DNA of 52,773 bases, counting the filler, from Diploschistes diacapsis (taxonomy: Eukaryota), in the NCBI GenBank assembly GCA_023645945.1. It is 3 parts of 3 records of this genome, joined end to end, with 100 filler letters (N's around TTAATTAATTAA, not from the genome) between each part and the next. Parts side by side here need not be neighbours in the genome. Positions count along the whole stretch, not along the records: positions 17,643 to 35,174 come from JALAIB010000453.1; 2 more parts are not named here. The stretch is one strand, 5' to 3'. Positions 14,020-35,873 of the stretch are shown piece by piece. Below the pieces are notes generated by a model that was not told the origin of the DNA, made no database searches, and was given only the letters and a program-made list of their open reading frames with translations. Positions within the stretch are counted from its first letter, which is position 1, and every line of letters begins with the position of its first letter. The translations under genes and the position numbers were made by a program.

Positions 14020-15311
14020 AGGCCACCGTCGGCAGCCTGTGGGGCCTGGAACAGGACCTTCGCGCACTCGATCATGCTTGAGAGCCGATGCCGAAAGCCT
14101 CGATTACAGCCGTGACGCACGGCAGACAGAACCCGAACTCGCTCCGCGGCCGGGTCCAATAACGGAAAGAAGAGCAGCGAGTTCTACTACCCGACACTCG
14201 AGAGATCTCATCGGAGAGATAGACCGGATAGGCATTGTGGATCTGGACATAGACTAGACTTGATCTACGCGAGAGAGTACCATAGATCCGTACTAAACCA
14301 ACCAACTAGGATTGACGACAGCTTTCCTTCTTCTCACGAATGTTCCCCTGTCACGGTGGGAAAGGAAGTGACTTTGGCCCATCGATCCCATCTCGATCAA
14401 GAACAACTTTACTGCAGGGATAGCACAATATCACAACCATCGCAGAAGCAAGCATGCTCGCATTTACTGCGCAGGATCCAACCTCCCATTAACAGTCACT
14501 AGGTACATGCACGCGTAGTATGTCTCCTTCCTCCATTTATCGCAGCAATCGGCATCCGCGCTCCCTCCCGTGCCATCTCCTCCATCATCCACCTCTTCAT
14601 CTCCACCACCTCCAGCTTTCAAGTTCCAAGACCCTCGCTCCAGCACCTCCGCACAGCCCACGACAACTGCCCAGCGACCTCTCTCCATCATCATCTTCTC
14701 CTTTTCCTTCCCCCCTAGATTATTACAGAGCGAGCGAGGTAGGAAGGCGCCCAGAGGATCCGCCGCCTGCTCTTTCGAGCATCCATCTCTTTAATCTCTC
14801 TCTCTTATTTGACTCTTTTTTGCCTCTTTTTGGCCTCGGTTTTCCCAAAATGCAAGACCCATCGCCTTGGTAACGCGCCGTGCCATGCCATACCCATGCC
14901 CTGCCAAAATTCGTGCCTGTCGAACATCATCGAATGGGCATATGCTAAGGAAGGTGGAACACTGGGGTTCATGCGCAGCTCGTGCTCTTATCACACAAAA
15001 GAGAGGTGATATGCCATAACATATCATGCTATGCTATGCCCATCCCATGCCATGCTAATTCCCATGTGCATGTCCACCACCTGCACGTCCCTATGTCGGA
15101 CAAGCGCGCCGCGCTCGCGCAGCCTTATAAAAATACGAGAAATATCTACCGAAAAAAAAAATTTAAAAAAATGCAAACAGGAATATGCGCAGAGAAGCGA
15201 AGTCCAAAGATCCTATCACCCGTCGCCGCGCTTGCTTTTCTTTCGGGGGCGCGCCACGAACCCGTCATTACTCCTCCCGCCAGCCAACCCGGTTCCACCA
15301 TGTCGTTTGGC

Positions 15312-16842
15312 TCACAGCCAGACGACGAAGCCCAGCAGCACCATTCCCAAGCCCACGGTCATGCCCGCCACCTCCTTCCCGCCGTTCGCCGAGCCCTTGG
15401 TCGCGCTCGCCGAGGCCGAGCCGGAAGGCGACCCTCCGCTGCCCGACCCCGTCGCTGCCGTCGCCGTCGCCGTCGCCGCGACGCTGGGGACCTGCGATCC
15501 CACCGGGTCGAAGGTTGCCGACTGGCCGATCGTCGGAATGGGCGGGTTGCCGTTGATAACCCACCCGCTCGGCGTCGACGACGGGCACGCGGGCGTCGAG
15601 AGCGCGGAGGTGGACGCGCTGTACGCCGAGAGCGCGACGCCCGAGGGCGAGAGCGTGGCCCATTGGGACTGCAGGTTGCTGAAGTCCGGGGTGACGGGCA
15701 TGGGCTTGCCGGAGCGGACGATGGAGCCCCCAGAGGCGGTGTTGGTGCCGGCGTAGGAGATGAGGCCGTAGTTGTTCGTCTCTTCGATCCACTCGTAGAT
15801 GATGGCGCCGGACCAGGTGTCGACCATGTCGGAGCCGAGAATGGCGGCCTGGTCGGAAAAGGTGCGGGGTGGGGCCGTGTTGCAGCCTGTTTCGGAGAAG
15901 AATATGGGTATGGGGTAGGACTTGGCTTCGGCCTGCAGGGTCGAGTAGCCGGATACCTGGTAAGAGCTCGCGCCGCACCACTCGTAGGCGTTCAGGGAGA
16001 AGAAGTCAATGGTTTGGGAGGAGTTGCCGCCGCAGACGAGGTAGTCTTGAAGCATTGGCCGTAGGGAGGCGATGTCGGCTGCAAAGCGTTAGGAAATGTG
16101 AGGCTGAGGAGTGTGGTGGACAAACCGGCGGAGTATCCGATGGGGATTTTGCGGTAGCCTTTCGAATCACGGTAGGCTTTCATGTCTCGTGCGGCTGCTT
16201 TCACGTAGGCTGCAGACGGGGCGTCCGATGCTACTCTGTGGTGAGTACTGTTGCAATTGAGGCAGAGAGTTTCCCACATACGTGTTTCAAGAACCTCGTT
16301 GCCAACGAATGCCCCGGCCAGGTTATCGTATTTTTGAAAACTATCGAGGACGGCAGCATAGTTGCTGAACTGGGTCTTGTTCCAGTATGGATCCTCCTGC
16401 ATGCTATCAGCCTTCTCATGTTCAATACGCACACCATATCGGCACGTACACCCAGGATGTACGTATTGAAAGTATCGAGGTCCACAAAGGCATATATACC
16501 AGCATCTGAGAAGGCCTGCATGCATGCATCGTGGTTTCCGCTAGCATCAACGTGATAGACTCGAATGGTATTAGCCCCCAAGGTCTTCATGAGTTGAGCA
16601 TCTTGTTGACATTGGTCTCCGTTGATCAATGGGTCGTCCTCCGTAAGCTGGTATGCGACTCCTGGAAATGGTAAGATCATTGCTTGTAGAGGTTGAGTTG
16701 ACAACATGCCTTTGATGAAGAATTGGTTACCATCGCTGGTGAAGAACTTGGAGCCAACTGCCTGTATCGTAGGAAGCGCAGTTACGGTTGGAAGAGCTGC
16801 TATGGCGCATAGGACCAAGAAACCTATGGGTTGGAGCAGCAT
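15312..16842 (-). CDS. GH72 1,3-beta-glucanosyltransferase (Gel/Gas family; no X8 domain, GPI-anchor-like tail), 5 exons
   Basis: Signal peptide, FFIKG|VAYQ, LGANTIRVYHVD, FVGNEV, IPIGYSAADI, DFFSLNAYEWCG, PIFFSETGCN, WSGAIIYEW, a Ser/Thr/Ala-rich linker and a hydrophobic C-terminus. Resembles Gel2-type members. Confidence 0.93.
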
Positions 16843-17542
16843 GACGGAGGGTAGAAGTCTTTGTTACAACGAATTATCCGTGTGACGGCAGCTTCAGTAG
16901 TGTCGAAAGATTATTCACTCCGGTGGACGACTCTAAGCCAGTATTACTCAAGGTCAGCTCGTAGAGCGTGCGTGCGTATTTGAAAAACAGAATTAGAGGT
17001 ATGAACACAATTAAAGACAAGTACAGAGTTTTCCATTTACAGTCAGACCGCATCCGCTCCTCTGATATGTGTGTATCAAGGTCCGACACTTGGAGAAGCC
17101 TCCCGATGCGGTAATGGAGCTCCAAGCTTGCCGGTTAGTAATCAATTCCTAGCGCAGTAACTTAGGTGCTAACTGTTAAGGCCGCTTATATGGATAAGCG
17201 CCGCATGTAGAGCGGCTTTCCTTGAGCTTCAAGGAATTTCGGAGACTGTTCTTGTTGCTTGACAGCAAGAGAACAGCGTGGGATTCATGTGAAGAAAGGC
17301 TCTCGAGATAGTTTGAACCGAAGGGAGTAACGCTACCAATAGCTATTTCCAACGAAGAACAGTATACAGTCACGTCCCAAAAGTAATGGTCCCTCCACCA
17401 AAACACACCAAAATTTTCGCATTTCAGGAAGCTCCCAACTCATCAATTAAAGGTTTTAGGAATTGAAAAGATTATAACGGACATTTAAAACTACGCTCAA
17501 TATATATAAATTCTTTTAAAAAAACTCCATGCGATATAGAGT

Positions 17543-17642
17543 NNNNNNNNNNNNNNNNNNNNNNNNNNNNNNNNNNNNNNNNNNNNTTAATTAATTAANN
17601 NNNNNNNNNNNNNNNNNNNNNNNNNNNNNNNNNNNNNNNNNN
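17543..17642. other. Artificial assembly linker (44 N + TTAATTAATTAA + 44 N)
   Basis: A stop-in-all-six-frames 12-mer is centred in an N run. An identical construct occurs at 35175-35274. Confidence 0.97.
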
Positions 17643-17828
17643 GATGAAGACTTGAGTCGACTAAGTGCTGCGTGCCATTTCCTGCAGCCACGCTCCCCCA
17701 GTTGTTCCACATGCTTAAGGGTAGACTTTTCCCCTCTCTTTCACTCCTCATATTATCGCGAACCCTTCTCGCTGTGAGTCTATGATTATTCCTCCCTCAT
17801 TCTCGTGGCCCTGTGAGCGAGATCGGAA

Positions 17829-19760
17829 ATGGGTCGCCGGAAGGTACCTCTACCGGCACAAGGTGTCGATCCAGCAGGATCCAACCTTTCGAATCGTGAA
17901 TATTACAACAAGGTGTACGATGAACAGGACAAGAATGCGAAACTTGTTAAGTTGTATAAAGATACCACTAACGGGGCGATTGATCGTATATAACGATTCT
18001 AGAAACAATACGTCTCTCTCTTATAGTGACCGGCCTTAACTTATAAATCCCTCTAGGTACTACGAAGAGGTCGAAATAAACCCCACGCATATCCTAATCC
18101 AGCAAGATGAAGGTCGGTTCAGAATCTTCTGGCGGTGGTACTGCGATAATTTCACTGTCAAGAAAGTCAGCTCAATCGAGATCTATTGGCATACACTCAG
18201 TCAGCTATATATAAGATGGGCAGGTCAACGAATGAGCCCGCAGGTTCCAAGCCATATCTACGAGGTAAAAGGGCTCTAAATATAAAGATATGGCGGAGAC
18301 TGAAACAATTACGGTTCATTCATGAAGAGCTTGCCGAAGAATATGGCCTTGACTTTGAAGAGACCGATAAGCCTCTGCTTGATGCGGAAGACTTTTGGGA
18401 AGCAGACAGAAAGACGTGTACATTTAATCTTGATGACAATCCTTTTTTCTGTATTATACTTTATTTCGTTACGCTTGTCTATGACGATAATACCTTCGAT
18501 ACCCTACCTGGCGATACGGTTATACTTCCAGAAACGGTATTTAAGCTGAGAGTTCGTTAAGGGCTTAACTGCCAACCGATATCTATCGTATAGCAGGTAT
18601 CACGAGTGGGTAAAGCGTCTAGGCCATGAGACGGGGTTTATTCAGGTATTTACAACCTACTGTCTACGCCGCGCGGCCGGCAATGCAATCAATGGTAAGT
18701 TCCTGGCGATTCTGCGATATGTAAGAGCAGCGCTGACGGCGGCATTCGCTAGACGATCCTACCGCAAATGAGCCCGTACGCAATCTGTCGATGGATCATA
18801 CTAACTCGGCCATCTTCTATCGCAATTACCTGTCTCGAATGATTCGGTATAACATTTAAGCCGTTTACCGAGAAGCGACTCCGCGGACAGACTGGATCCG
18901 TGCAGCCAGTCGTATGAGTCAACTGATGGATCCGCAGCTGCCAAAGAAATTGGACGAGTAACAGAGGAAGTTATACGGTCCGAGCCCGAGATCCGAAAGC
19001 TTCGTTTAAAGAAGAGTAAGCTATTTCGGCAAATCAGAATAAAGTATATCTTTGTTTATAACGCTATAAAGAACCCGATCTATAATAAATACCAGAAAGC
19101 TAAGCTAGATATACATGACTTTATTAAATTTCGAGAGCGTATCCTTTTTATCGAGATATTGAAGAGCTACGATCAGACAGCTCCGCTTAAAGATATATAG
19201 GAACAGATAAACAGGGACGTTAAAACGGATAAATCTTTAATGGCAAGTAACGATTCCATTTAATATTCTTTTCCCGAGCGATTTTAGATCGTAGAGGCGG
19301 TTAACGAGTCGAGATTATTAAAGATTAATATATCTCGCCAGATCGTTATCGTTAAAGATTTAATCTTTCTCTACAGGCGTCAGGAAAGCGGGCTGTTAAA
19401 AAGCTCGCGAAAAACGTATACAGTATACGTCGACTTTTTAACAGCGGAGTAGGAAGAAACTCGCCGCCTTCCCTATTGCATTCTGCTAAGACAGACTCGT
19501 CGGATTCTGAAGCCGATGACCGCCTTCTATTTCCAGTGAAATGCGACCCTTCTCAATGTCTAATATGTGTGGGTGATCGCAGCAAGCCTTTGATTCGAGC
19601 GGCGGCACAGTTACGGCAGCAAGTTCTCAATGCAGCGGCACATTAGCAGTACCACAAGGTCCCGCCAGGCGTGTGCACACATCCAGACTCTGTATGCTCT
19701 CCTTAAGTCGACGAGGCACTTCAAGCATCATGCCGCGGCGGTCCATGGTATTGAGCTGGG
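17829..19760 (+). pseudogene. DUF3435 tyrosine recombinase (Starship captain type) with C-terminal Cys/His finger-like region; RIP-damaged and internally deleted
   Basis: Manual translation: MGRRKVPLP...YKDTTNGAIDRI*RF*K; FWRWYCDNFTVKKVSSIEIYWHTLSQLY; LAEEYGLDFEETDKPLLDAEDF; DDNPFFCIILYFVTLVYDDNTF; WVKRLGHETGFIQVFTTYCLRRAAGNAIN (motif at 18658-18687); RNLSMDHTNSAIFYRNYLSRMIRYNI*; FPERF*IVEA; QCLICVGD; HFKHHAAAVHGIEL. Stops are mostly TAA/TAG, consistent with CpA->TpA change. The 3' end is approximate. Confidence 0.85.
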
Positions 19761-20135
19761 GGGAAGTTGTGGTCGCATTTGCCGTAAACCACGTCCAGGC
19801 GAGGAAGGGAAGCAGCCGCTGCGCAATTGCGAGCCTGTTGAGCCTCTATAAATCACGCTTGTCATATCATTCCCCTTCTAATTAGCAATGTTAGTTCCAA
19901 TCGTTTATAAGCTAGCAAAGCTCAAACTATACGGTTACCGCATAACTAACTGGTTAGTAAAAGAAATCTCTGTATATTGCGTTATTGGCTTACTTGCTTG
20001 GTCTAGGATTTGATTATATAGCTATACGCTTAAATAGTTCTTAGTTTAAAGGGAACACCCGCATCCTAGAACCAATGCGCTTGTCGCATACGTTTGATAC
20101 TTGATATCACTTTGAAAGCTCGATTATTTGAAGCG

Positions 20136-20698
20136 ATGTCTTCAAGCAATTTACCAAAGCTTAAAATACGACTAATACGAGTTATAGCTCATACGATGGG
20201 GCCTGTTACTCCCGGAGGAGCACTCAGTCAGAACCACTGGTCCATTCTCTTCATAATCGAATCGGGGGGATGCGTCCGGGTCCATATGCAACTCGCAGAC
20301 CCAAAATCGAGCAAATTGGACGGGAAACTCGAAATCAAACAATATGCGTACGAGAACTCCAATAGCGCTGTGAAATATTGGGACTTCGCCGTGCCCAACA
20401 ATCTCACCGTTGGTGCAATACTGAGCCTGATCAAAGAAAAAGGCCGGCATCAATATACCATGGCAGAAGGAGGGGTTGGATGTCGCCACTGGACGTTGGT
20501 GCTCTATCTCATCCCAACGTTAGATTCGATTTCTAATCCTTTCCCTGCAGATTAACTTTTATGCACGATATGGAGGAAAAGAATTACGTCGCAACGCAGA
20601 CTGCCACTGGTGAGAAGGTTGATGACATTGCTCAATACAACTATTCCCGTGGACAAGCACCAAGCATGCTCGCCATCAAGGAAGGGACCTTCTTCTAG
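20136..20698 (+). CDS. Small fungal protein with NHW...GCRHW motifs (resembles the DUF7770-like family), 2 exons
   Basis: MSSSNLPKLKIRLIRVIAHT...NHWSILFII...GRHQYTMAEGGVGCRHWT, then intron 20495-20550 (GT...CTAAT...CAG), then LTFMHDMEEKNY...AIKEGTFF*. Intact frame after splicing. Confidence 0.75.
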
Positions 20699-22604
20699 CT
20701 TGACTCTACTGAGGCTTGGATCTTATTCGAGTTAGTAATTCTGATGCCCCGTCAAATGTTCCTAATAATTGATCAAGAAGCATTGTCCCAGCACAAAATT
20801 ATCTACTATGTACGACACTGCATTGCAACTTATTAGTTGTAAGCAAACAATCTAGTCTCACTGCCATCTCACTTCAGGAAATGGTTATTCATCCCCTCAT
20901 AGATCACCTTTCACTTCATCTACGGAACTCCGAAGGGTTTCCAATGACTCACAGAAAAGTCCTACCGCGCAGAAAATATCTTCAATCCTATCTTAAATCT
21001 TCGGCTTAGGTGTACTCAAGAATGTTCATCACATGATGGCGGTAGACTGAGGGGCGGCCTAGATCAGCGACGTTTTATTTTGTTTATTGGCAGAGAGGTC
21101 TATTCGTTGCGATCCTCCTCCATCTTATCAGGTTTGCTCGAAGAAACGTCAAGATCGGAGCGGGAGGATAGGGTCCATGGCGAAACTTGCAGTGCAGTCT
21201 CCACTATTGTCGCTGGTCTTTGAGGCCTAGGGATACGATGAGCGTCATATAGGGCACATGCAAATTCCAGAACCCCTTTGTAATTACTCACATGGTGGCT
21301 ATCGCATCGCTAACTGCGTCGTGCTAGATGTGCTAGAGGCAGGGCGCGGGTTTTTGTCCGAGAAGTGCCATTTAAGCATGCAGCCTCAATATGTACTCGT
21401 CTTCGTGAGCGCGACGCGGTTGCGATACATTCCTTCATGAGTTCCGACGCCGCCGATTTCGGTTTCCCTTCCGGTCCCTTTTGTCTTCCGCCAAAGTTTG
21501 CTCCCATTCCAGATACCAGGCGGGAATTTGATCGGCAGTCAGCGCAGTCCCAAGTAAAATATGAGAGTGGTGTGAATGCCATTCGCGAGTTCTTTAGGTC
21601 GTTTCCCCAGTTCTAAATTCTACAGCTCCATCCAGACCCAACGTCGTAGTCTTTGCATCACGTGATCACGCCACGCATTTATGGCGCAGGGGCTGGTGAT
21701 ATTAACTGCTGCGATGGTGTTTAGTGGAATTACTAAAGAGGATCGATCGCCAATTCGACGACAGCCAGCCGCGGATTTCAGAGACTGAACGCTCGCAGGT
21801 AATTCGGTCATATCATGTCTCGAGTTCGTCCAGCCCTGGTTGCTCAGCTCCTTTGGGACAAAGCCAGAGTCATCGTCCAGAGGTCTTAGTAGATAGAATT
21901 TGTCAGGGATACAAGTTTGTAATGGGAAGATCGAGTATGCCTTGTCCTACGTGATCAGGTTGACGCTCGCTGTTGCGTACGAAGGAATCAAGAATAGTTT
22001 GAATAGGGGGCCCATATGCCCTTGTGACTCGATTTTTTTTTGGCCTGGCCGTTGGCTGTACGACTGCTAAAGATTAAACCCCCTTGAGCCTAGATGACAG
22101 AATCAGTAATTATCCAACATCCACACCTAGGAACCTTAATAGAACGGGCTCCTTGCTGTCTCGACCTCTGGCCTGTTATCCTGACTTATCTCATAACCCT
22201 CCTTTCCTCGCATGTAGTTCGCGAATTCCTCGGCGGGGATTCCAACTTGGATAAAAAAAATATCTAGATTCGACACCTTCCAACAATTTCACTCGACGAT
22301 GGAAATATTTGAGGCTCGGTTATAGAGTATTAACATTCAAGAAGTCGGCTATGCTCAAGTATGAAGAGGGCAGGGCCAAGATCGGAAAAGTACTGTGCAT
22401 CGAGCAAATTTCACTAGTTTTGACTGCAGTGGTTCGCTATCCAATGCTGCCGCATGAAGGTAGGATGGAGCATTCCCAGCCCTGCGTAGTACGAGTACCT
22501 AAGAACTTGAACACGATCTAGTCCGCAGAAGGATTACGGAGCGGAAAACATGGTCGTCGGCCCTTTAGGTCTTTGTTTTACGCTTCACACAGCATCCACC
22601 CAAG

Positions 22605-23498
22605 ATGGAACGTTCGAATGCTATTGATATCGACTATCATAATTGCTCAAACCAATCTCTTGTTGATGCTTGCAAACCAGGCGAGTATCCAGTTATTGGT
22701 GGTTGCGAATTTGGCAGACACGTTGTCCGAATCGCGAACGATGCTGTTATTAAGTACGGATATGGAGTAACAGCAGCAGAAGCCGCGACCCAAGCATTCG
22801 TTCATAGTCATGTTGACGTCTCGATGTTTCGTGTTCCTAAGGTCTATAGATTCTTTGAAGAGGAGGCAGACTTAGGTAATATTGGTTATCTTGTCATGGA
22901 GTTTATCAAAGGAACAAGACTTGATAAATTGGACGATCATGCTAAATCGGAGCTGTCGGTAAGACTCGCCAGCTGTCTACAACATCTGTGGCAGATCCCA
23001 GTTCCATCGGATTTCCAACCAGGGCCTATTGGTGGTGGGGAGCCCAAAGGTCTTGTATGGTCTGACGATGGCGCATGCACGGTCTTTGAAACGCTTTCGG
23101 ATATGGAAGATTGGCTCAATGTGAGCCTGGACGTTGATGAAGCCATGGCTAGAAAGGGCCGCTGGGACATTCTTGACTATTGCGCACCGCTAGAGTCAAT
23201 ACATCATCGGTTAAGCCTGGCAAAATACTCTTTGGTCGTATGCCATGGTGATTTTATTGGGCGAAACGCAATTCTTCAATCGGACGGTACAATCTGGATC
23301 CTTGATTGGGGTTGTGCAGGCTGCTATCCAATATTTTTCGACTTATACGTGATGATATATAACGAGAGTTTCGATCCCGTCCTAATTACGCCTCTTATAC
23401 AACAGTTAATGTCACTAAGGATAGATTTTACGAAAGAGCTGGACTTACTCCATCGGGTTCATCGTGCAAATGCTGTCTTTTCAAGGTTTTGTACTTGA
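22605..23498 (+). CDS. Aminoglycoside-phosphotransferase (APH/choline kinase-like) family protein
   Basis: AVIKYG.GVTAAEA, RVPKVYRFF, GYLVMEFIKG, PGPIGGG, Brenner-like HGDFIGRN and ILDWGCAGCYP. A short 3' exon (about 23535-23613) is possible, since a branch site GCTAAC and TAG acceptor are present. Confidence 0.85.
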   Translation: MERSNAIDIDYHNCSNQSLVDACKPGEYPVIGGCEFGRHVVRIANDAVIKYGYGVTAAEAATQAFVHSHVDVSMFRVPKVYRFFEEEADLGNIGYLVMEFIKGTRLDKLDDHAKSELSVRLASCLQHLWQIPVPSDFQPGPIGGGEPKGLVWSDDGACTVFETLSDMEDWLNVSLDVDEAMARKGRWDILDYCAPLESIHHRLSLAKYSLVVCHGDFIGRNAILQSDGTIWILDWGCAGCYPIFFDLYVMIYNESFDPVLITPLIQQLMSLRIDFTKELDLLHRVHRANAVFSRFCT

Positions 23499-23694
23499 TT
23501 GCGTTCTATCTGATACAGCTAACTGTTGAATTAGGGCTCCTATTATTCAAGAACGATGGTCATTTGATGGTCTCGAGACACCTCCCGAACCGTACTGGCC
23601 GGATGAAGAATGAAAATTTGAGAGGGAGCCTATCTCTCAATGAAATTATTACGCATGCTAGTGGTGCACATCACGTTGTTGCGTAAACCATACG

Positions 23695-23789
23695 GAGAGT
23701 GCATACCACAGAGGGTGTATACCACAGAAGGTGCATACCACGGGGAGTGCCTACCGCAGCAGAAGGTGTATATCACAGAGTGTGCATTA
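23695..23789. repeat. Degenerate 16-bp tandem repeat (GARRGTGYATACCACA), about 5.5 copies
   Basis: gagagtgcataccaca/gagggtgtataccaca/gaaggtgcataccacg/gggagtgcctaccgca/(gca)/gaaggtgtatatcaca/gagtgtgcatta. Confidence 0.85.
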
Positions 23790-26700
23790 CAAACAGCATT
23801 CAAGTCTCTTTAGACGCGTAATGGCTGTACACATCTGTCTTCACTATACGAGTCTCTCTAAGGAGCCTGCTAGATACGTCCCACACTCGTCGCCATCTTT
23901 ACCCCTTTTTGTCTTCGTCCTTTCTCTATTGTTCCTTTATTCCCTGCTCTCTTTCTCTTCTCCTCTGCTTCTTGGCCTTGGCCCACTCCCTTCTTGAAGG
24001 ACCACGGAAGTTCCTCTCAGGCGACTGTGGAGAGTGTACCACGAGTTTGCTGCTCTTAATGTGGGATGTTGAGAGACGCACAGTGACGTGCCCAACTTCG
24101 TTTTGGTCCCATTAACTAATTACAGCGTGAAGGCCATTCCTGTTTCGATCTTGTAAGAATAATTTGGTGATAATACAAGAATATTGTATGTGGAACAAGA
24201 GCCTCGTCTAAAGTCATACCTAATCTGCGTCTAGTTGTTTCTCCCACCTACCTGGACAGGATGGGCTACAGACTCGGAGAGTGAATCTTCCGGAGACAAA
24301 TTTCTTCTTTCAGTACGCTAAGGAAGATGAGTGAAGAAAGACGTAGGAAGCAAGTGTTTGGGAAACAGTAATCAATTGTCTATGTAATTGCATGGCTACC
24401 GTGAATTGTCTGAAGCAAATATCTAGAGCGGGTAATAACATCTGGCTAAGTCAGATAAAGCAGTTCCAGAGCCCCCCGAGGAAGTGTAAATCTAAGGGGG
24501 TTTTGGCAGTGGAAAGTAGCTGGTGAGGGGGCATGAATCCAGGAGTTCGTCTTCGCTACAGACACTTTTACTTCTTTCTCCGTTCCCTTAAAAGACCTCC
24601 CCCGTCGCCGGAAATTTAAAGACCTGCGCCACTTCATTCCAAGACTAGGAGCCCCATCCTAAAAGCAACGAAAACAGTCGTGGCAGCGGCTCTTGGAATA
24701 CCCCGGTTTTCTCGAGGGCTCTTCACCGTCCATGTTGAACCCCCCCCCCCCTGCCCATGCAGTCTGTAAACTACTCCCTACGGACCACTTGTACTCACAA
24801 CCTCATTGGGCCGAATGTGTCCCAAAGGACGGAGCCGCACGATAATCGCGAACGACGCCCTAGAAGTTGGTTGACTCGTCATATGGGATCCAACCTGGAT
24901 GCGAGGGCTGGCTGAAAAGATGGTACTTTTTCAAACAAGGGGTTCACGCAGAGTTACTGGTACTACATCTGTTTCCCAGCGGGGGGAGCGTTACGATTTC
25001 TTTGGATCAGACAGATAGAGATACATTGGATGCAAGCAAGCCAGCGTGTTATTTCCTGCTACCAGTATTTTTTTGTTTTCAAGGAAACTTTGACAGGTGA
25101 GTGGGTGGAAGCAGCGTGCTGTGATGCATTTTAGGTTTACCCTACCTACGCAGGAAGAATGCATCCCAATTCTCTCCTGGCATTCATTATGTATGGAGGG
25201 AGTCGGTCAGAGAATGCATGGGTCGAGGCAGGTACGCCATGTGTGAGATAGGACGCCACGTGAGAGAAGGGACAGGTACGATATATGTGAGGCAGATATA
25301 ATCTATGATTTGTATATTATATGATTCTTTCGTCGGCTTTAAAATTTTTAAATTCGGTCTTTTTCGATTCGATAACGACAGGCTTGAAGGTGAAGTGATC
25401 ACCTTCTTGCTTCGCTGTTCCTTCCACGCTTTTCTCATCAAACGATCTCTCTTGTTCGTCAGGATGCTCATAACAAGCGGTGACACAGCTTGTGATTCTC
25501 AGGATGCAAAGCCGCATGGCTTTGCACTGCGCTCGCCTATATACCGGACATCGTCACGCTGGGGCTCTCGATGGGGGCTATATGCAACGAACCCGGGGTA
25601 TCGCGGTTACCTCAACTGCCCGAGTCTTGCCTATCCATCGCTGAGACCTTTCCGTTGGAGAATCACTCCACCGACCGAAACGCCATGACTACTAATCAGA
25701 AGGGATCGTTCACGGGTCTCCAGATTCATGAGCCCCTTTTCCTGACCGAGCTGCAGGCGGCAACTTCACCTCCACATCTCCGTAAGACGTACAAACAGAT
25801 GCTCGAAAAGTACCGGCCGGTCGATACAGTAGTGGTATCGGAGCATGCGGCGAGCTGAGCCTTCAGAATCATCGGTGACGCCTGTGAGCCCAAGTTTAGC
25901 AGAAACTTCTCACCTGCTTGTTCCAAGTGCCGGCTTGTAATCCCGCTTGCCTAATTCCTCAGCTCGCTCAAGCAGAGCTCCATTGAGGCTGGTTACTGGC
26001 ACCATTGTTGGTTCCCATTGGTAGCACCTTACAACTCAGAGACTCGTCCTTCTCCAAGTGGACGGCGCCAAGGTCTGCGACTTTCCCAGTCTTTGCTACG
26101 ACAGGATCGTGAGAGTGGCAATGCGGTGGCGTGATGACTTCTCTTCACGACGAACCCAACGTGCTGGGATATCCCTCAGCTCCCTCGCCTTCGGAGTCGC
26201 AACTCTTGCGGAACGGCGACGCCGCTTTAGGAGCGGGTCATCCTCGAGCGGCGTATGAAACCCTGCAGGAGTAGCAGGCCATTTCCGGGTTGGCGCAGTT
26301 TGTGGAATGCTAGTGTCGACATGAGGTTAGAGGACCTCGCCGTCACGCTTCCTGGGTAAGACTTCCCCCAGCGCCACGTCTTCTACGACATGAGGTCCTC
26401 ATCATGCCCTTCACGATTCGAATAGCTGAAGAAAGAAAAAGCTAGCTACGGGTCGTGGTGGCAGGATACCGAGTGTGGGAGCTCGCGCGACCGGGATAAC
26501 GTTCTAACGTATATCGTGTGCCTGGCGGTGAGAATGCCCTAGATGCTATGAAATGCTATGGAGCGCTATGGAGCGTCGTTCTGCTGTTCGATTGAACGGT
26601 TTTGGCACGTTATTTTGGCGCATGAGAACGAGAGCGGTATTTATGTTGCCGCCGTGTCTGAGAGCGGTTAGAGTGAAGCGGAATGGACGGGGTCAGCGTT

Positions 26701-27583
26701 TGAACGGCGGAAACAACTTCGGAAAGAATAAATTTAATGGGAAGCCCCCCACACATCTATCTATCTGCTTCTGCGATGAGTCATGACGAGCGCTGTCCCC
26801 GTCTCTTTCCGACATTTCATTCGTCGGAAGCTTCAATCGCCAATGCTGGCGCCTAGGCCGCAGCGTCATTGCCGGATATCCTGCTCATAAAAGCTTCAGG
26901 TCCGGCATACGGAAGAGTGATACTGCTACTCCTCCACATTAATCAATCAAACTCGCTTTTCACATCCACAGGACATTTAAACTCAAGACTACAGAATTTG
27001 CGTAAGGGTTTCATTTCTGGAAAGTCTGACTACGACTGGAAAGACTGAAATTTGAGCAGAAAATGTGTACCTGGGTGGTTTCCACAACGAAGTATACCGG
27101 ATGCCCTTCATCAGGTAACACAACAAGTACCGACCTGGTTAAAATGTGAAGCCGCACGCCAGTCGGGCAACAACATGCGCAAACCCCGGGACGAGTACGT
27201 TAGCCTCAACCACTGGTCGCAATATGTGTCCCAATCATCGGGACGAAGGCTATTCCCGGCGCTAAGGGGAGCGCAATCTCTGCGGTTTTGGACTGCTTTG
27301 GTGGTTTACGATGGCAGCAGGTGGAACTGTGGTATGGTGGGGTAACCTGAAAAGAAGTTGATGAGCAAACATCGGATAAATATATATATATATATTAAGA
27401 TGGTCCTTCATTTGTAACACGCTCATTACACCATGCCAAGGTATCTTACACATGGCAGATGTTGCAGAAGGAGGTAATACACTGAATATATAGCGTACAG
27501 GTAGCCACCTCCCATCTCTTCCGCGGACAGTATGGTTATGCCGTAAGCGTGGTGGCATTACCGAAGAAAAAGCATGTGATTTT

Positions 27584-28594
27584 TTACTGCGTGTCTGGGA
27601 TAACTTGGGCCGACGAGCGCTTGACAAGTTCGATGATCATCTTAGCCGATTCGGCTTCCTGTCTCCAGCATAGTGCAATAATCTCTGCGAAGGGCACGCC
27701 GCCTAGTTCCGGAAACACTCCATCCTTATAGAGTTTCTCCACCTGGTCTTCGTCAGTTAGTTCGTTATACGGCTCATGCCCGGTGGCGATGAAGTAGATT
27801 GTCGAGCCCAAAGCGAAAAGGTCCTCTTTGATCGTCGCCGACTGCATGTGTCTCTCAGCCAGGCTCGGCAGCCTGTATCTCACTCCCGGAACAACCATGG
27901 CCCGCGAGCCATCCAAGGAAGACCCGCCGAAGTCACAGATCTTGAGACTGAGATCGACATCCAGCAGAAAATTGTGCGGCCCGACATCACCCTGAATGAC
28001 GCCGTGGGAGTGTAGATGCTCAACACCCTCACTGGCCTCCATGGCCCACTGTTTCCTCTGGGCTGGCGATATCTTTTGTCCATACTTCTTAACGTATTCC
28101 ATGAGATTGCCGCGAGGCATGTATTCCAGCGTCAATGTGTGGTCGACGGGATCCCAGTGTTTAAGTTGTACCAGTGGGGGATGTGCTCCAAGTCTCTCGT
28201 ATATTTGCGCCTCGATCGCCATCTCTTGCCTGCAGTCTGATGCTGTTGGACGGCCCGTCCAAGGAGACTTGATAACATCTCCCGACTTAAGACGTTCTAC
28301 AAGTCCCGTCACCCCCCCACCGAGGAACTCGCCCTTCCCCTGTATAATATTGGCATTTTTTTAAGCTCCTTGATAGAGACAGGCTTGCCATTGAAGATGA
28401 GGTCCTGAGGGTTGATACCTGCTTCGCCATCCGGGCCGTCCGGGCTGGTGTGATCGCAGGCTACAAATGCACGCATGGTTAGCTTACCCAGTGGGCAATG
28501 GTGGACCGCTCTCTGAGGAAGCTCTACCTAGCGAAATTGCTGCCTTTGAGAACATTGCTTTCAATGTGGAGCTGATCAAGTTGCACCAGCTCAT
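27584..28594 (-). CDS. Ser/Thr protein kinase-like gene (accessory fungal kinase) with an apparent frameshift in an A7 run
   Basis: Gly loop FLGGGVTGLV, VIKSPW, EAQIYERLGAHP, LEYMPRGNL, IQGDVGPHNFLL, KICDFGGSS, EDLFALGSTIYFIATGHEPY. Inferred exon 1 28594-28528 and intron 28527-28461 (GTAGAG...GCTAAC...TAG). The frame breaks at the T7 run at 28356-28362. Confidence 0.8.
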
Positions 28595-28734
28595 CGGTCT
28601 CCTTCCATTGGCCCGGATGGGTGTGGTTGCTCCCGCGCAGTCGTGGCTGCAGTCGCATTTGCTGAAAGCCTTGTTGTAAAGGTTGTAACTAGCGGAACAA
28701 TCATTTCCCGCAATGCAGAGTTCACGCGACAGAG

Positions 28735-28827
28735 GGGTGTGATATTGCAAAGCGCCCAGTTTAGTACAGCTAGGCCACATAGCCAAATGACCAATAATAC
28801 TGGTGTGCCAGTATTGAACTAAACTGA
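28735..28827. repeat. Structured ~93-bp terminal repeat, copy 1
   Basis: CAGTTTAGT (28757-28765) pairs with ACTAAACTG (28818-28826). Inner hairpins are GCTA-ggccaca-TAGC and AATACTGG-tgtg-CCAGTATT. Ends CTGA followed by TATATATA. Confidence 0.9.
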
Positions 28828-29558
28828 TATATATAGCAAAACCACAGGAATCATATCGGAATAGCCTACTGCAGCGAAAACACCTCAACAGCGAGAACTC
28901 GAATTCTTGGACATCGAAGCTGGGAGGGGTGGGAGGCGGTAAGAAGTGATCAGATCGTAAGTAGAAGAACTACGTTAACTATGAGAGAGCAAATGCAGCG
29001 CCCACGGAGTGCTCTATAGTCCCTCGATGGTCATTTAGGGTTGTTGATAGACCTATTCACTGTTTCTTGTTTGGACCGGGGGGGAGGTGGGAGGGTATGG
29101 CTTTTTTTATGACTTATAATATATGGCGGGTGTAGTTTGAGCAAATCAGAATACGCCATCATTCAACCTCTCTATCACGCCTGTTTTCTTTCCGTTTTGT
29201 CTATCAGTTAATAAAAAATATGTATAGTATATACGCTCCCGACACATTCTAATACAAAACTGCATTCTGTGCCCCCCCCCGAAAACTCACTGGAGGCTCA
29301 ATACTCAATGCTTCCCTGCCAAACGCCTCCGTGGTCCTACTCGCCAATTGCCGCAACGTAGTGCAACGAAACTTGACTGCCCTATGCCGGAGTACAGCCT
29401 TCATTGGACCGCCGGGCTTGTACACCATAGCCACCTTGAACCGTCCCTTGTTCTCTTCATCTCCACCTGTTCCCGTCGCCTTCCGTTCCTTCCTCCCCTC
29501 TCTCTATCCATTCTCCTCGACCGCCCCCGAATCACACGATCGTGTCCGCCCTTCCCAT

Positions 29559-30179
29559 CTACTTCCGAGGATCGGGCACACTGCCCTGTGACATCGTCTG
29601 CGGCGCCGTCTGCACGGGCGCTGCGGCGGCGGCCGGGCCCTCTGGCACCTTCACGTCCGAGAAATCATCCTGTTTCACGGCGTAGAAGGTAAAGGAATCT
29701 AGTTCTCGATTAAAATGATACTTTTCCCACCATAAGTTCCCTGTCCACTTGTGCGGGGGGATACTTAGTAGGAGTAAAACGGGGAAGGAGGCCTCGATGG
29801 GTACGAATGCGCTTTGCTTGAATTCGAGACGGAGCAGCCAAAAAGAGAGAAGAGGAGGGTGAGAGATGATTTGCATGCTAAAGGGGCAGTTGCTTCAAGG
29901 AAGACGTACAGATACTCATGGCGAAGGCGAAGAGGCCAAGGCCGGTGAAGATGTTCTTTATAAGGTATGGCTGGCGCGCGCGGATGAGGGCGGCGGTTTG
30001 CCGGTAGTCTTTTGTGTAATAGGAGGATCGCGGGAGACTTGCAGGAAGTGAGCATTAGCTTGGAGCTTGGGTAGGAGAGATGCAGGGAGGGAGAGGTAGG
30101 AGCATGATAGCGTCCGCTGACGTTGCCGGCATGTGAACCTGCGATATAGCATGCGGTAGGAAGGGACTTACATCCCCAT
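29559..30179 (-). CDS. COA3: Cytochrome c oxidase assembly factor 3 (Coa3/Cox25), 3 exons, 91 aa
   Basis: Exons 30179-30172, 30037-29910 and 29698-29559 (GTAAGT..AAG and GTACGT..TAG introns) give MGILPRSSYYTKDYRQTAALIRARQPYLIKNIFTGLGLFAFAMSIYSFTFYAVKQDDFSDVKVP...RK*. RARQPYLxKN and QDDFSDV are Coa3 signatures. Confidence 0.9.
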
Positions 30180-30787
30180 TGCTTTTGCTCGCCCTACTAT
30201 TGTAGCAGGTGTTGGTTTATGATAGTTGATTCGGGAGTTGGAGATCTATGATGCCCAAAGCAAATCCTTTAGATGTAGTAGGGCTACATCGTCGGAGCTT
30301 GGGCAAGGTCACGTGTAAAGCGGACAATGCAGGATTGCGGAAAAACGACAGCTCCAGAAGAAGATTAGCGACTTACAGGGATAGCTACAAAATACCGATC
30401 CTTGAATATCAAAGCATTTTTTTAACTCAGACTCTATTCACACCCCATCCATCGGCGTCGACAAACCGTTAAAAGGCATTGGAAAGTTATCGGGTGTTTG
30501 TTGCTGGCTTGAATTCTCTACGCCCGCTTAAGACGCGCTCTTCATTCCATGCTGACCTCAAGCTTCGTTCTCGCTTTGCATATCATTTATTGTCCTGCCA
30601 CAATACGTGTAGAAGCCCTTTGTTCTTGAACGCCTCGACCCCCGACGATTATTCAGTCTACTCTAATGTCTTCACAACCGTCCGTCTCGGCCTCCAGAAA
30701 TAGCCATTCAGCCGAGCCTACCAGCTCCTCGTAGCTTCCCCAAGCCTTTGCCTCGTCTTCCAATCTCGACGCTCTAAAACCCCCAAC

Positions 30788-33440
30788 ATGGCCGAAGCCA
30801 TCGCCAAGCAACTATCCCAGCTCGAGGAGGCTCGAAAACATGTGCTTGCCGACGCGGTCCACTACTCCGCTATTATCCCCGGCATCCTCCCTATCATCGG
30901 CTCCAAAGCGCACCTCGACATCCGAAGATGGGGTACGGAATTTCTAGCAGAAGGCTTCGCAAGCCCGGTACTTCAAATACACGCAAAAGAGGCACTGAGT
31001 GTGCAGGTATTGCCGCTACTGAGGGAGCTGCTGGACAATCCTGCGGAGGATGAATACGTAGTTAAAAGCGTGGTACAGACCGCGGCCAGCATTTATGGAC
31101 TGGTATTCAGGCATATGTATGTGGATTTCTACAAGTCTAGCCCATCGTTATATTTCAACATACTCGCGGCTCTGGTTTCGTCTCCGCTGAATCCAACGGC
31201 CACATCTAATATTTGTTCATAGAACGAACAACCCGCAAAACGCCCCAGCCTGGGCCGAAATGGCCGCCATCAAATCCAGCATACTCAAGAGATTTGATAC
31301 GGCCGCTGTCGGTGTCCGGGTCTGCTGCATTAAATTTGTTCAACGGGTGGTGCTTGTTCAGACGCCGGGAGTAATTACAGATCCAAGAGTACGTGATCGA
31401 TCCGTAATCACGAAAGGGCACAAAGGCTGATTAAGAGCCACAGAGACCAGAGCTGAATGAGATATCGCTGGCTCTAGTTCCTCGGGACCATCCCCTGATA
31501 CCACCCCCGAACCTTGAAGCAGAAGCCTCTGGCTTACTTGACAGGCTGCTAGAGGTGTTCTACGAAGAGAAGAGGTAAGATTGCATACTTCCTAGGTAGA
31601 GCGAAATATCTGATGCAGCTGAACTAGCAACGCCATTTTGGTGGATGCGACCCTCAACTGCCTGTCCCTCCTTGTCCGCGCGCGCCAAACGATCTCCAGC
31701 AAGATCATCTCCGCGGTCCTGAATTTCAACCCCCTCAAACACGTACAAAATGGCATGACCGGTAAAGACAAGGTTCTCATCAAGTCCATGGAGAGAACTG
31801 TCCGGTCGTTTCTCATGAACATCTACCGAAGGTTAGTCTTTGCATTTTTGACCAATTGGACATGAGCTTATGCATACAGGAGCCCTACCGGCCCATTCGC
31901 CGCCCGGATACAGCAACACGTCGATCGGCTAGCATCCGCGCGTCTAGAACTCTTTGAAGAAGGCAATAGGAAACGTGGACCTCCTGAGCCCATAGATGGT
32001 CTTGAAGGTGCTAAACGTGCTCGTCTCGGCGCGCAGCTCAACGACCGGTCAAACATCCCACCATTGCCTGCCGGACCAGTGAGCATAGCACAGCTGTACA
32101 CCCTGACACGCGAGGAAGCTCTCAAATCCTTCGATGTGACACTTATTCCTCTGGACCTTATCGTCAAGATTGCTCTAACGATATACCAAAACGTTGACGC
32201 TTCACATCTGGATGCGGCGGTCAACGCCGTGCGATCGAGGTATCTTGACATTAGTCGCCAGCCGCCAGCGCCAGGGCCAGCTCTCATTCCTGTTGACCCA
32301 GCTTATGAAGACGATGACGACTATGAGCCGGAATATCAGCCAGAGCCAGAAGAAGACGAAGACCAAGTCCGAAACAGACTTGAGCCATCACCTGCCGATG
32401 AAGAAACCAAACCAGAAGCTGATCTAGCACTAAAGGCCTTTAAGCTAGCGCAACCACCGCCCATTACATACGAAGAAGCAGAGAGCATGGGCAAGGGAGC
32501 TATATCGCGAGTGTTTATTATGATGAATAGACTTGAGGAGCCCGCCAAAGCACAGAAAGCAGGGCTAAACAGGCTTGCTGGCAGCAACTTCGATAGGGAA
32601 GCTTGGGTTACAATGATCACACGGCTAGCGACAAGAACAAGTCCCACTTTGCCGGACAATGACAACGTTGAGGAATCGGACAAAGGTGTCTTAGTACGAG
32701 CGCAAGGGCACTCACTAGGGGACGGCATTCGCGAGACGTTGTGGAAGTACGTGGTTGAGGACTTCCGACATCGGATAGATGTGGCTATATCGTGGCTCAA
32801 CGAAGAATGGTACAACGATCGAATACAGAGTGGAGCTGCTGGCAGGGCGGAAGCCACCAATGGCAAGCCGCAAGGGCCAATCGCGAAAGCAAACTATGAA
32901 AAATGGACACTTAAATTACTAGACGCCATCGTTCCCTACTTGGATGCTAACGACAAAGTGCTTGTGCGCTTTCTAGGAGAGATTCCCGATATTAGCCAAA
33001 CGGTGCTAGATCGGGTCAAGAACCTAGCGAGGGATCCTGATAGGGTGTCGTTGGCTGTGAAAGCCATTTAGTGAGTCTTCTTAATCACGTCAGAGGGCCC
33101 CATCTAATCTTCGATGCAGCTACCTCGTTGCCTTCAAACCGCCAGCAAAGGAAATGGCAATCAATGCTTTGGAGGATCTCTGGAACAACTGTAGGCTGAA
33201 TCTCTACGTTAGAACCAATCCCCACTAACTGCGGCACTAGACGAGGAAGCTAAGGCTTCCGTAAGGCCCCTTTTAGCGAGAGTTCGCCCAAGCGCGCTAG
33301 TAGAAGCTGCCCCCTCAGCTATCAAAAAGGAAGGCTCCTCAACGCCGGCATCACTCAAGGAATTGACACCTACCAGTCGAGCAACGGAATCGCCTACGCC
33401 GCAAAAGACGCTGTCGCCGAACCCCGTCGTTGCAGGTTAA
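30788..33440 (+). CDS. PTA1: Symplekin/Pta1, mRNA cleavage and polyadenylation factor scaffold, 7 exons
   Basis: QLEEARKHVLADAVHYSAIIPGILPII, VVKSVVQTAASIY, GVRVCCIKFVQRVVLVQTPG, NEISLALVPRDHPLI..PNLEAEASGLLDRLL, IKSMERTVRSFLMN, AISWLNEEWYND, LVRFLGEIP and LARDPDRV. GT-AG introns; TAA at 33438-33440. Confidence 0.9.
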
Positions 33441-34181
33441 GCATGTCCAGCGACTGGATTGTGGATGCGAGATGCTCATTACATTGCTGGGATACTTCGC
33501 AACGGCGCCGCGGCGTACGATGATTGCCCTTGGATTACTGTAGCACTGGGACATCTGGGCGAAGTGCTGCTTATTATTGGGCTGGACCTTTTACTACCAA
33601 GATACCAGGTTGTTTGGATTGCATTTGCCGGTTCGTGGTGCTGGATGACCTTTCTTGCTGCGGTGTTCCTTCTTGGTTGTTTGGAGAAGCCGACTGAGGT
33701 AAGCTAACTACAAGCTGGATTCAAGGAGATGGAATGAATAGATTTCTCTGGTGCTCCATAGTGGGGTTATAAAATCAAGCAAGGAGCAAAGAGATCTGGC
33801 GACTCACACTACAATAGCTATTTTTAGTTCCGAAGCAAGTCACGAATACGCTTGGCTATTATATACATTGAGTGCCTCGACGATTGAGCGCCTTGATGGG
33901 GCTTCACGGATCGCCCGACGACCCATTATTCTGCAGCCTTTTGGTTCTTAGATCCATCGGGCGTTTTGGGTCGCTCCTAAATGCAACACCCAACCTACTA
34001 CGTATGCTGCGTATGTTGTATGTTTTTTGCATACGCATCTAAAACCGAAGAGCTTTTGTTAAAAAGAGTGGGTGTAATGATCCCAAATTAGGTAATATTG
34101 GCTGATGAAATACAGTCAGGTGCCAAAAGTAGTTAGGTCCTTTTCAATCCTCACCAAAACCGATCAAATTAATACCTAAAT

Positions 34182-34447
34182 TAGGCTGGCCGTTTCGTGC
34201 CACGGTCACTGACACGGACACTATAACAAAAAATTTTAAAACACGGATACTAACACGGACATTATAGTTAAAATTTTAAAACACGGATATTAATATGGAC
34301 ATTATATTTCCGTAAATTCACGAACACGGACACCGTAATTAAAAAATTTAAAGCACGGATATTAATACGCACACCGTAATTAAAAAATTTAAAATACGGA
34401 TATTAATACGGATATTATATTTCCGTGAATCCACGGACACGGATACT
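34182..34447 (+). mobile_element. AT-rich, RIP-like DNA-transposon end with a subterminal repeat array (ACACGGAYAY units); hAT-like
   Basis: Starts TAGGCTGGCCGTTTCGTG. About ten ACACGGAC/ATACGGAT variants lie in ~39-40-bp higher-order units with AAAATTTTAAA spacers, and variants differ by C->T/G->A. Confidence 0.6.
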
Positions 34448-34582
34448 GTTTGGTAACGTAATAGATATATTGAAGTCTAGAGGTCTTATCCTAGGAAATA
34501 TCCTATTGTGCAGACTTTTATCCTTCACGGTGTGCGTTAAGCCCTATTACCTTAACCGGTCTAGTCCGAATTCTAGTAGGTT

Positions 34583-35140
34583 TAGGGGGGAAGTTCAGCT
34601 GAACTGAACTTCCTGGTTCACCTGACCTGAACCTTCCGGAATTGGGTCGAGCCTATCATACCTTCTACCTATCCGCTTAACACTTTTTTACAGACGGAAT
34701 CATTTAGCATGTCTAGCCTAACTAGATATCTTTTTAATCTAGGCCGAGTTTGAATAAATTAATAACTTCGTACGAAACAATCCGTTTGTTAAATAAATTA
34801 TTTTTTATTTTATTGCCCTTTTTGGTCGAATAAGTTCAGTATTAGTTCAGCCGAACTTTTAATAATTATCGAAGAACATCGAGCAGGTTTAATAATAAAT
34901 ATAATTAAATTCTCGATATTGACGAAGATGTCGAAAAGGTTCAGCGACGGTATAATTGAATATCGATCATTATCGGAGATCGAAAGGTTCTAACGGCGAA
35001 GATAACGTTTCGGTTAAATTTCGAAAATTATTAAAAAATTAATTAAATCTAATAACGTAAATAACGATACTATTAATTATCGAAAGTTAACGAAAATAAT
35101 CGATAGGATTCAGCGTAAAAGGTTAATTAAACTTCGATTA
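34583..35140 (+). mobile_element. Second RIP-like transposon remnant with GTTCAG/TGAAC subterminal motifs; hAT-like
   Basis: TAGGGGGGAAGTTCAGCTGAACTGAACTTCCTGGTTCACCTGACCTGAACC followed by very AT-rich, TpA-rich, CpA-poor sequence with recurring (G)GTTCAG. Confidence 0.5.
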
Positions 35141-35174
35141 TTGTTGAGCAGGCAGGCAGAATGCATGGCTGGGA

Positions 35175-35274
35175 NNNNNNNNNNNNNNNNNNNNNNNNNN
35201 NNNNNNNNNNNNNNNNNNTTAATTAATTAANNNNNNNNNNNNNNNNNNNNNNNNNNNNNNNNNNNNNNNNNNNN
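35175..35274. other. Artificial assembly linker (44 N + TTAATTAATTAA + 44 N)
   Basis: Same construct as 17543-17642. Confidence 0.97.
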
Positions 35275-35422: not shown

Positions 35423-35531
35423 GGGTGTGATATTGCAAAGCGCACAGTTTAGTACCGCTAGGCCACATAGCAAAAGACCAACAATACTGGATTCTGTCAG
35501 TATTGAACTAAACTGATATATATATATATAT
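35423..35531. repeat. Structured terminal repeat, copy 2, with abutting (TA)7
   Basis: gggtgtgatattgcaaagcgcacagtttagtaccgctaggccacatagcaaaagaccaacaatactggattctgtcagtattgaactaaactga|tatata... Same orientation as copy 1; homology stops abruptly left of GGGTGT. Confidence 0.9.
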
Positions 35532-35873
35532 GCGAGACCACACGGGGGCCCGGCCAGGTTCGCCGTTAGTAGTAGGCCTGCGAGCCGTAGGTCGGTTGAG
35601 GGCTCGTCTTGCGCGAATCTCGGGATGGATGCTAAATCTTGGACCGTACGTGACACTGTTCTTGAAGCATCCGGACATCGATGCGAGCACGACGTTACAT
35701 AAGCTGTTTTATGGCAGTTTGTTTTCAGAGTTACTACAGACCGAAAATTCCAATGCCTTAACCTAAGGACACTGAGTAATTGTTCTTAAAGATCGGCATT
35801 AGTAATCACGTCTACGAGCGTGCTTTACGCTTGAGATATTGACCCTATTTTCAGGCTAGACTCTTCATAGTGC

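Follow-up and report, generated by a model that had tools for sequence, protein, structure and literature searches.

A short multi-copy repeat with an internal TA run beside a frame-broken kinase gene of probable foreign origin in the lichen fungus Diploschistes diacapsis

Background

Helitrons begin with 5'-TC, end with 3'-CTRR and insert between A and T without a duplication, and Helitron2/Helentron elements carry short asymmetric inverted repeats, the 3' one upstream of a terminal palindrome, and insert between T and T. Micron of rice and MuTAnT of Medicago are reportedly elements that target microsatellites. [quoted passage not shown] Here we analyze a window (the whole stretch of 52,773 nt, filler included, from assembly GCA_023645945.1) of Diploschistes diacapsis, a lecanoromycete lichen fungus according to a taxonomy look-up, in which an initial annotation had proposed a gene-carrying, (TA)n-targeting mobile element: a kinase gene between two TA tracts, ending in a 93-bp terminus that recurs elsewhere in the window. 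Such a mobile element, if true, would be a new class of gene-capturing, microsatellite-targeting element. What is present is an unclassified MITE-like family with an internal (TA)n, an unrelated microsatellite, and a frame-broken kinase gene of probable foreign origin. With moderate confidence, we read the 93 bp as most of a self-contained repeat of ~109-117 bp, a MITE-like non-autonomous DNA element, and the kinase gene as separately acquired from a Xylaria-like donor.

Results and discussion

The shared 93 bp belong to a self-contained repeat

Two copies of the repeat can be read base by base, and the other copies were followed through the summed depth of contigs and the consensus of their loose ends.

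28738-28846 (109 nt), plus strand: repeat copy 1, a ~109-nt MITE-like repeat, with borders taken from loose ends of placed contigs
35426-35542 (117 nt), plus strand: repeat copy 2, on contig C, with 151 nt of contig before it
17543-17642, no strand: artificial contig joiner, N44-TTAATTAATTAA-N44
35175-35274, no strand: second artificial joiner, N44-TTAATTAATTAA-N44

Positions 28738-28835 and 35426-35524 are 91% identical over 100 columns (E 3.6e-28), which confirms the recurrence, and a 21-mer of the repeat has two matches in the window against none in 100 shuffles. The distance of 6.7 kb given for the two copies does not hold, as they lie on different contigs. The window is a concatenation of three contigs, recorded as coming from a metagenome-assembled genome (MAG), namely A (1-17542), B (17643-35174; 17,532 nt) and C (35275 to the end), and distances or neighbourhoods across the joiners are therefore artificial. 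An inner sequence "entirely different" between the copies had also been reported, and here only 151 nt of contig lie to the left of copy 2.

Contigs from public runs were placed on 20000-34000 at 80% likeness: a lichen metagenome from which the window may itself come (X1), a run from a named organism that is a relative (X2), a rock metagenome (X3) and a fourth run (X4). In the listed pieces X2 differs from the window by ~2-6%; X4 contributed four short, weak pieces, and no conclusion was drawn from this thin cover. With X1-X3, a single bin out of 30 shows a jump in depth, 28406-28872 (467 nt). In X1 the depth is 2552 in this bin, where the adjacent bins have 72.3 and 76.8, and 7300 at position 28757 (~100x the flanks). 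The corresponding values are 926 against 84.4 and 114.2 for X2, with 2946 at 28757 (~34x), and 62.8 against 1.74 and 1.6 for X3, with 205 at 28757 (~60x). Taken as a proxy, summed contig depth not being a copy number, these values point to some tens, and up to about a hundred, copies of the family in the genome of the lichen fungus and in two related genomes.

The borders follow from the loose ends of the placed contigs. Letters clipped before 28737/28738 and behind 28846 bear no relation to one another (agreement 0.55-0.62). Those clipped behind 28835 still have a consensus that belongs to the repeat, namely TGCGAAACCACA (X1), TGCGAGAGACCACA (X2) and TGCGAGACCACA (X3), recorded also as TGCGARACCACA. 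The similarity goes on for 11 nt after the TA run (GCRARACCACA, also seen as (T)GCGARACCACA) before the copies diverge; in copy 2 the sequence past the TA run is T-GCGAGACCACA, the counterpart of GCAAAACCACA in copy 1. Because these 11 conserved nucleotides follow it, the TA run is internal to the repeat and is not its target. This disposes of two points of the initial annotation, that the repeat ends at its TA run, when copy 2 and other genomic copies continue with (T)GCGARACCACA, and that the element had inserted into (TA)n, when the run lies inside the unit with 11 conserved nucleotides beyond. On the other side, the clipped consensus before 28756 still reads ..TGTGATAATACAAAGCG, which suggests that the break there is clipping at an insertion or deletion and not an end of the element or a true absence. 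A terminus shared by longer, cargo-carrying elements is likewise at odds with a signal limited to one 467-nt bin and with borders at 28738 and 28846 that are ~109 nt apart and mutually inverted.

The ends of copy 1, TGTGATATTGC (28738-28748) and GCAAAACCACA (28836-28846), form an imperfect 11-nt inverted repeat with 9 of 11 matches (8 of 11 in copy 2); the probability of at least 9 of 11 is 1.3e-4 for a fixed register, and the empirical value at that spacing in the window is 6.5e-5. Inside them lies a second inverted pair, CAGTTTAGT (28757-28765) and ACTAAACTG (28818-28826), and, centrally, the hairpin AATACTGG (28796-28803)/CCAGTATT (28808-28815), followed by 8 nt and then CTGA|T. Both the hairpin with its 8 nt and CTGA|T and the inner inverted partner are as first described. 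The TA run, (TA)4 at 28828-28835 in copy 1 and (TA)7 at 35517-35530 in copy 2, sits 11 nt from the right end. Folded as DNA, the unit gives the nested helices TGTG/CACA, TTGC/GCAA, CAGTTTAGT/ACTAAACTG and AATACTGG/CCAGTATT, with z from -2.5 to -3.1 (-2.6 for copy 1). The two copies have different hairpin loops, and alignments often break off in this loop (loose ends before 28804 and 28806).

The unit shares with MITEs in general its short, non-coding make-up (109 and 117 nt, below ~800 bp), its TIRs and its high copy number, the last by the depth proxy. It does not behave as a Tc1/mariner (Stowaway-like) element, for its outer flanks are G-rich and a TA follows the inner repeat on one side only. 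The flanks of the two readable copies are CGGG/CGGG (copy 2) and GGGG/GGAA (copy 1). If the unit is a MITE, its copies would be spread by a transposase acting in trans on the terminal and subterminal repeats. The length of the TA run, (TA)4 or (TA)7, varies by slippage.

Searches with both copies against the window (blastn-short and nhmmer) returned no further or partial copies, the best other match having E 0.18, and a 26-base core pattern had no match among prokaryote genome contigs. A candidate among metagenome contigs (L001), picked up by a gapped pattern of the two inner arms, has an unrelated interior and was set aside as a chance match. No published mention of the sequence strings of the repeat was found, and no comparison with a transposon consensus library was made; nor did we find relevant literature on MITEs in lichens or on transposable elements of Diploschistes. 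Of the family first proposed, a real, multi-copy, non-coding and mobile-element-like repeat stands, with no described match found, and one terminus with variable cargo does not. The repeat is an ordinary short family with an internal microsatellite. It is useful for the annotation of repeats in lichen fungi, and it serves as a warning about concatenated contigs.

The kinase gene is not carried by the repeat

27381-27394, no strand: (TA)7 microsatellite in single-copy context, outside the repeat family
27587-28555, minus strand: protein kinase gene, frame-broken and pseudogene-like (Pkinase 2.4e-24), with the start codon at 28555 and the stop codon at 27584-27586

The kinase frame (27587-28555, minus strand) does lie between (TA)7 at 27381-27394 and (TA)4 at 28828-28835, as had been observed, and copy 1 of the repeat is 182 nt upstream of the kinase start. 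The bin that holds (TA)7 (27005-27471) is flat in depth, 72.3 in X1 and 86 in X2, and this site and the repeat share the TA run alone: the left tract is a microsatellite unrelated to the repeat. Tracts of at least four TA units number five in 52.7 kb, two of them within the repeat copies, and we estimate roughly an 8% chance of meeting a third tract within 1.45 kb of a given point, which would make the arrangement unremarkable. The possibility that 27395-27480 is a conserved opposite end finds no echo, the segment being single-copy by its flat depth (72.3 in X1) and resembling nothing else in the window.

An empty site, which the mobile-element proposal predicted, was not found in X2, the one relative with bridging contigs. 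These are colinear at (TA)7 as well as at the repeat locus, and X2 has the kinase, the element and the flanks on either side, an outcome that the initial annotation had itself listed as refuting its model. One of them (record 11) is colinear over 26957-28318 and thus across (TA)7. A second one crosses the repeat locus, extends at least 90 nt into both flanks and carries the element with an internal deletion of 56 nt (28757-28812 replaced by AAC). A contig of X2 also has 93 extra letters at 27527-27530, 57 nt past the kinase stop codon, which could be another small insertion.

Inverted or direct repeats that bracket the kinase were sought in 23500-30800 and in all of contig B, with only short pairs at chance level, and six-frame read-through of 23900-30700 returned only the kinase and a weak Coa3 match. 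Copy 1 is not an end of a kinase-carrying element. Of the mobile kinase once proposed, carriage by the repeat has to be given up, and mobility persists only in the sense of probable horizontal transfer.

A frame-broken kinase gene of probable foreign origin

The reading frame of the kinase is broken twice. An in-frame stop follows ...PLPTG near 28484-28489, after which the protein continues in another frame, and the return to frame falls at the T7 run 28356-28362, as judged by tblastn of homologues of 312-325 aa. The annotated kinase protein of the contig is 212 aa long, N-truncated and without the glycine loop. The contig built independently from X1 is identical to the window over 24716-28785.

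The closest relatives of the kinase are found in fungi distant from the host. Its identity is 89-93% to proteins of Xylaria venustula, X. arbuscula, X. polymorpha, X. digitata and Xylaria sp. FL1042, 92% to that of the dothideomycete Lineolata, 85% to Trematosphaeria and 84% to Diaporthe. As a yardstick, the Xylaria proteins are 84-91% identical among themselves, and Xylaria and Hypoxylon, which belong to the same order, share 73-76%. The window protein falls into one 90%-identity cluster with two Xylaria proteins. Among 1141 candidates, 147 relatives were obtained at E<=1e-5, and the best 120 of these 147, as listed, include no Lecanoromycetes by their names, a few of which were checked in the taxonomy. 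In a quick tree of the window protein and 45 of the 120 rows (the named ones plus three unnamed, 75 being left out), the kinase falls in a group of 17 rows with Xylaria, Nemania, Biscogniauxia, Lineolata and unnamed rows (Shimodaira-Hasegawa-like approximate likelihood ratio test, SH-aLRT, 85), as sister to Lineolata (95). An approximately unbiased (AU) test did not reject a clade of the window kinase and Sarcosagium (p 0.373), with the Sarcosagium row partial (174 aa); Sarcosagium is leotiomyceta incertae sedis in the NCBI taxonomy and not a lecanoromycete, so this test says little. The GC content at third codon positions (0.61) lies within the host range of 0.41-0.76 and is uninformative.

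A similarity to a distant lineage above what the species tree leads one to expect, together with linkage to native genes, is the pattern looked for in horizontal gene transfer, and the kinase shows both. By this comparison of proteins, the lichen fungus likely acquired the kinase horizontally, either out of a Xylaria-like lineage or, like that lineage, out of a shared mobile source. Its acquisition would precede the split of the X1 and X2 lineages; a direction from a Xylaria-like, possibly endolichenic, fungus into the host, across classes, is what the identities point to. Species of Xylaria are common inhabitants of lichen thalli. If true, the transfer would make them the second group of donors in the flow of genes lately reported from lichen-associated fungi to mycobionts.

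Native neighbours and physical linkage

22569-23495, plus strand: APH-type phosphotransferase gene (APH 6.6e-17), lecanoromycete-like, 4 kb left of the kinase
29562-29990, minus strand: probable Coa3-like small gene, perhaps an intron-containing housekeeping gene (Coa3_cc E 0.0054 and 0.00017 in two pieces, both below the curated cut-off)
30704-33068, plus strand: symplekin/Pta1 housekeeping gene with several exons (SYMPK_PTA1_N 3e-18 and 1e-18)

The protein of the APH gene is 100% identical to an annotated protein of Diploschistes diacapsis (MAG), and Xylographa trunciseda follows as the next best match (77%), from a genus that shares its subclass with Diploschistes. The symplekin gene, 2.1 kb right of the kinase start, has its best matches in Xylographa, Lambiella and Lasallia (52-58%). 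The Coa3-like gene lies ~0.8 kb right of the repeat and would be the nearest native-looking gene on that side. The other open reading frames (ORFs) on either side of the kinase match nothing in Pfam and look non-coding. The foreign block falls short of the whole interval 23495-29650.

Contamination or a chimeric join is an unlikely source of the kinase. The X1 contig that carries the kinase (24716-28785) terminates within a repeat of the abundant genome, an X2 contig bridges the repeat into DNA that is continued by the X1 contig 28808-34139 up to symplekin, each of the three runs has similar depths to the left and to the right, and the break of the X1 contig on the left coincides with a C9 run.

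Weighing the readings

Several observations weigh against the two-part reading favoured here, a MITE-like repeat beside a separately acquired kinase. For the repeat, the depth left of 28757 is ~10x below that of the core (705 against 7300 in X1), and many copies may lack the left arm or have diverged there. A target-site duplication is not consistent between the copies (CGGG/CGGG in copy 2 and only GG/GG in copy 1), the inverted ends are short and imperfect, and domain scans of the ORFs of the window found no autonomous partner. Unrelated sequence left of the shared part is predicted also by a model of variable cargo; the case against that model is built on the inverted ends, the confined depth and the single-copy left side. 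For the kinase, the X1 contigs (records 4 and 8) break inside the repeat, and the linkage of kinase and symplekin is that of the assembly and the bridging X2 contig. The tree is a quick search in which the group that holds the window kinase reaches an SH-aLRT of only 85.

An unlikely alternative for the repeat is a solo long terminal repeat (LTR), or the LTR of a terminal-repeat retrotransposon in miniature (TRIM), that is, a terminal repeat of ~110 nt left behind after recombination between two LTRs. The TGTG...CACA ends with their short inverted termini, the 4-nt direct repeat CGGG/CGGG around copy 2 and the purine-rich run ACAGAGGGG that adjoins copy 1 on the left would all fit. However, ~110 nt is very short for an LTR, the flanks of copy 1 match in only two of four positions, and the window offers neither a pair of copies in direct orientation nor a sequence like a primer-binding site beside either copy. 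The nested inverted repeats and the hairpin are instead typical of MITEs.

Slightly less likely again is a composite origin, in which a Tc1/mariner-like mini-element of ~70 nt (CAGTTTAGT...ACTAAACTG) inserted into a TA of an older repeat (TGTGATATTGCAAAGCGC/GCGARACCACA), the whole was then amplified, and the TA run arose from the TA duplication. The inner repeat starts with CAGT, as do many Tc1/mariner ends, and has A(TA)n next to it on the right; the core depth is tenfold above that of the left arm; and X2 has an allele without 28757-28812. Yet the inner unit lacks a TA on its left side (GCGCC|CAGT and GCGCA|CAGT), and the right inner arm survives in the X2 deletion, which therefore represents neither a clean excision nor an empty site.

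A transfer of the kinase as one small cassette of ~1.5 kb, bordered by (TA)7 and the MITE-like repeat, appears very improbable; if true, the cassette would be a small mobile unit with a gene as cargo, of a type that has not been described from fungi.

The terminus model of the initial annotation, in which the 93 bp are the shared end of Helitron-like or other (TA)n-inserting elements with cargo, is already largely refuted, and we give it hardly any credence. It drew on features that exist, namely the hairpin with 8 nt and CTGA|T, the kinase between two TA tracts, the difference between the copies left of the shared part and a kinase that looks horizontally mobile. Nevertheless CTGA|T is internal, since copy 2 and the consensus of all three runs stay similar for 11 nt past the TA tract; the single-copy left side resembles nothing in the surroundings of copy 2; and X2 has no empty site but a colinear locus. 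At the true ends, the unit reads TGTG...CACA, with flanks G|..|G and G|..|C, and shows neither the TC...CTRR signature of Helitrons between A and T nor the T|T signature of Helentrons. Among the Pfam matches of the window, which cover 36 of 83 ORFs of at least 110 aa and 38 of 59 shorter ones, there is no Rep/helicase and no transposase domain.

Equally remote are small structured RNA genes or a short interspersed nuclear element (SINE) that RNA polymerase III transcribes, in which the TA run would be a simple repeat resembling a tail: the unit is short, multi-copy and has conserved stems with a variable loop, but 28600-29000 matches no Rfam family at E<=10, an informal inspection by eye saw no motifs like A or B boxes, 11 conserved nucleotides lie beyond the simple repeat, and the fold z of -2.5 to -3.1 is modest, with two copies too few for compensatory changes.

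A decayed recombinase gene as a possible vehicle

17725-19882, plus strand: decayed gene of a DUF3435-family tyrosine recombinase, in one frame with 17 in-frame stops (9 TAA, 5 TGA, 3 TAG)

DUF3435 recombinases are the "captains" of Starships and also occur as the Crypton type. A Starship is recognized by an intact captain that stands first at its 5' end, by defined borders of direct or inverted repeats and by an empty site. The gene in the window is recognized with E 2.4e-14 when read through with X at the stops, and as separate fragments with 6.2e-9 and 2.2e-4; its best relatives, of 692-699 aa, are from Vezdaea aestivalis (41%) and Cladophialophora immunda (33%). It lies near the left end of contig B in a stretch of lower GC (0.45), ~7.7 kb from the kinase, and the lecanoromycete-like APH gene stands between them. 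It is conceivable, though doubtful, that the kinase arrived on a Starship-like DUF3435 element.

Other features of the window

The Pfam matches of the window are otherwise ordinary fungal genes, among them ChAPs, HMG-CoA synthase, KAR9 and symplekin. On contig A, an open frame at 3492-7862 (plus strand) codes for 1457 aa and matches no Pfam family at E<=0.01.

Depth in X1 is ~110 over the left part of contig B (17643-24744) and 72-77 over the right part (24716-34139). The X1 contigs break at 24716-24744, which coincides with the C9 run, and composition bias, a mixture of strains or a partial duplication are candidates for the shift in depth. The interval 23.9-27.4 kb has no coding signal; a paralogous segment ~89% identical to 25510-25741 is found on another X1 contig (10,141 nt). 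A 16-nt tandem repeat of ~4 or more units occupies 23692-23790, and an AT-rich array of ~41-nt units lies at 34206-34449, near the right end of contig B.

At 20047-20530, which overlaps a DUF7770 ORF (20070-20552), the X2 contigs differ from the window almost only by blocks of C>T/G>A, in 36 listed places, and the depth in X2 is ~1.6x. These blocks resemble repeat-induced point mutation (RIP) and suggest a duplicated copy in X2.

Comparison with known systems

Among described systems, MITEs come closest to the repeat, which is ~110 nt long and non-coding, has TIRs, folds as a long hairpin and lies in an intergenic or promoter-proximal position. It differs in that its ends are short and imperfect (8-9 of 11) and that no target-site duplication of fixed length is seen in the two copies. 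With the microsatellite-targeting MITEs it has in common a short TIR element physically tied to (TA)n, whereas, compared with the elements as those sources describe them, it has a single, internal TA run with conserved sequence after it and none at the left border.

The likeness to Helitrons consists of the hairpin, ~8 nt, and CTGA followed by T, with a short inverted partner ~60 nt inside. In the repeat, however, CTGA (28824-27) is internal, the ends are TGTG/CACA on either strand and the flanks are G..G and G..C. Unlike in Helitron2/Helentron elements, the (TA)n palindrome precedes the partner of the 5' end, which occupies the extreme 3' end, and neither copy has T|T flanks.

For the kinase, the nearest described case is Tangerine, a Starship with foreign genes recently reported in the lichen fungus Xanthoria, in a paper whose main text has no mention of a kinase, Diploschistes or Xylaria (PMC13486527). 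As far as that account describes it, the two share a lecanoromycete genome, a gene of foreign affinity from a lichen-dwelling group and a DUF3435 gene, here on the same contig; at the present locus, in contrast, the recombinase is decayed and ~7.7 kb away, and the apparent donor is of the Xylariaceae where that of Tangerine is of the Chaetothyriales.

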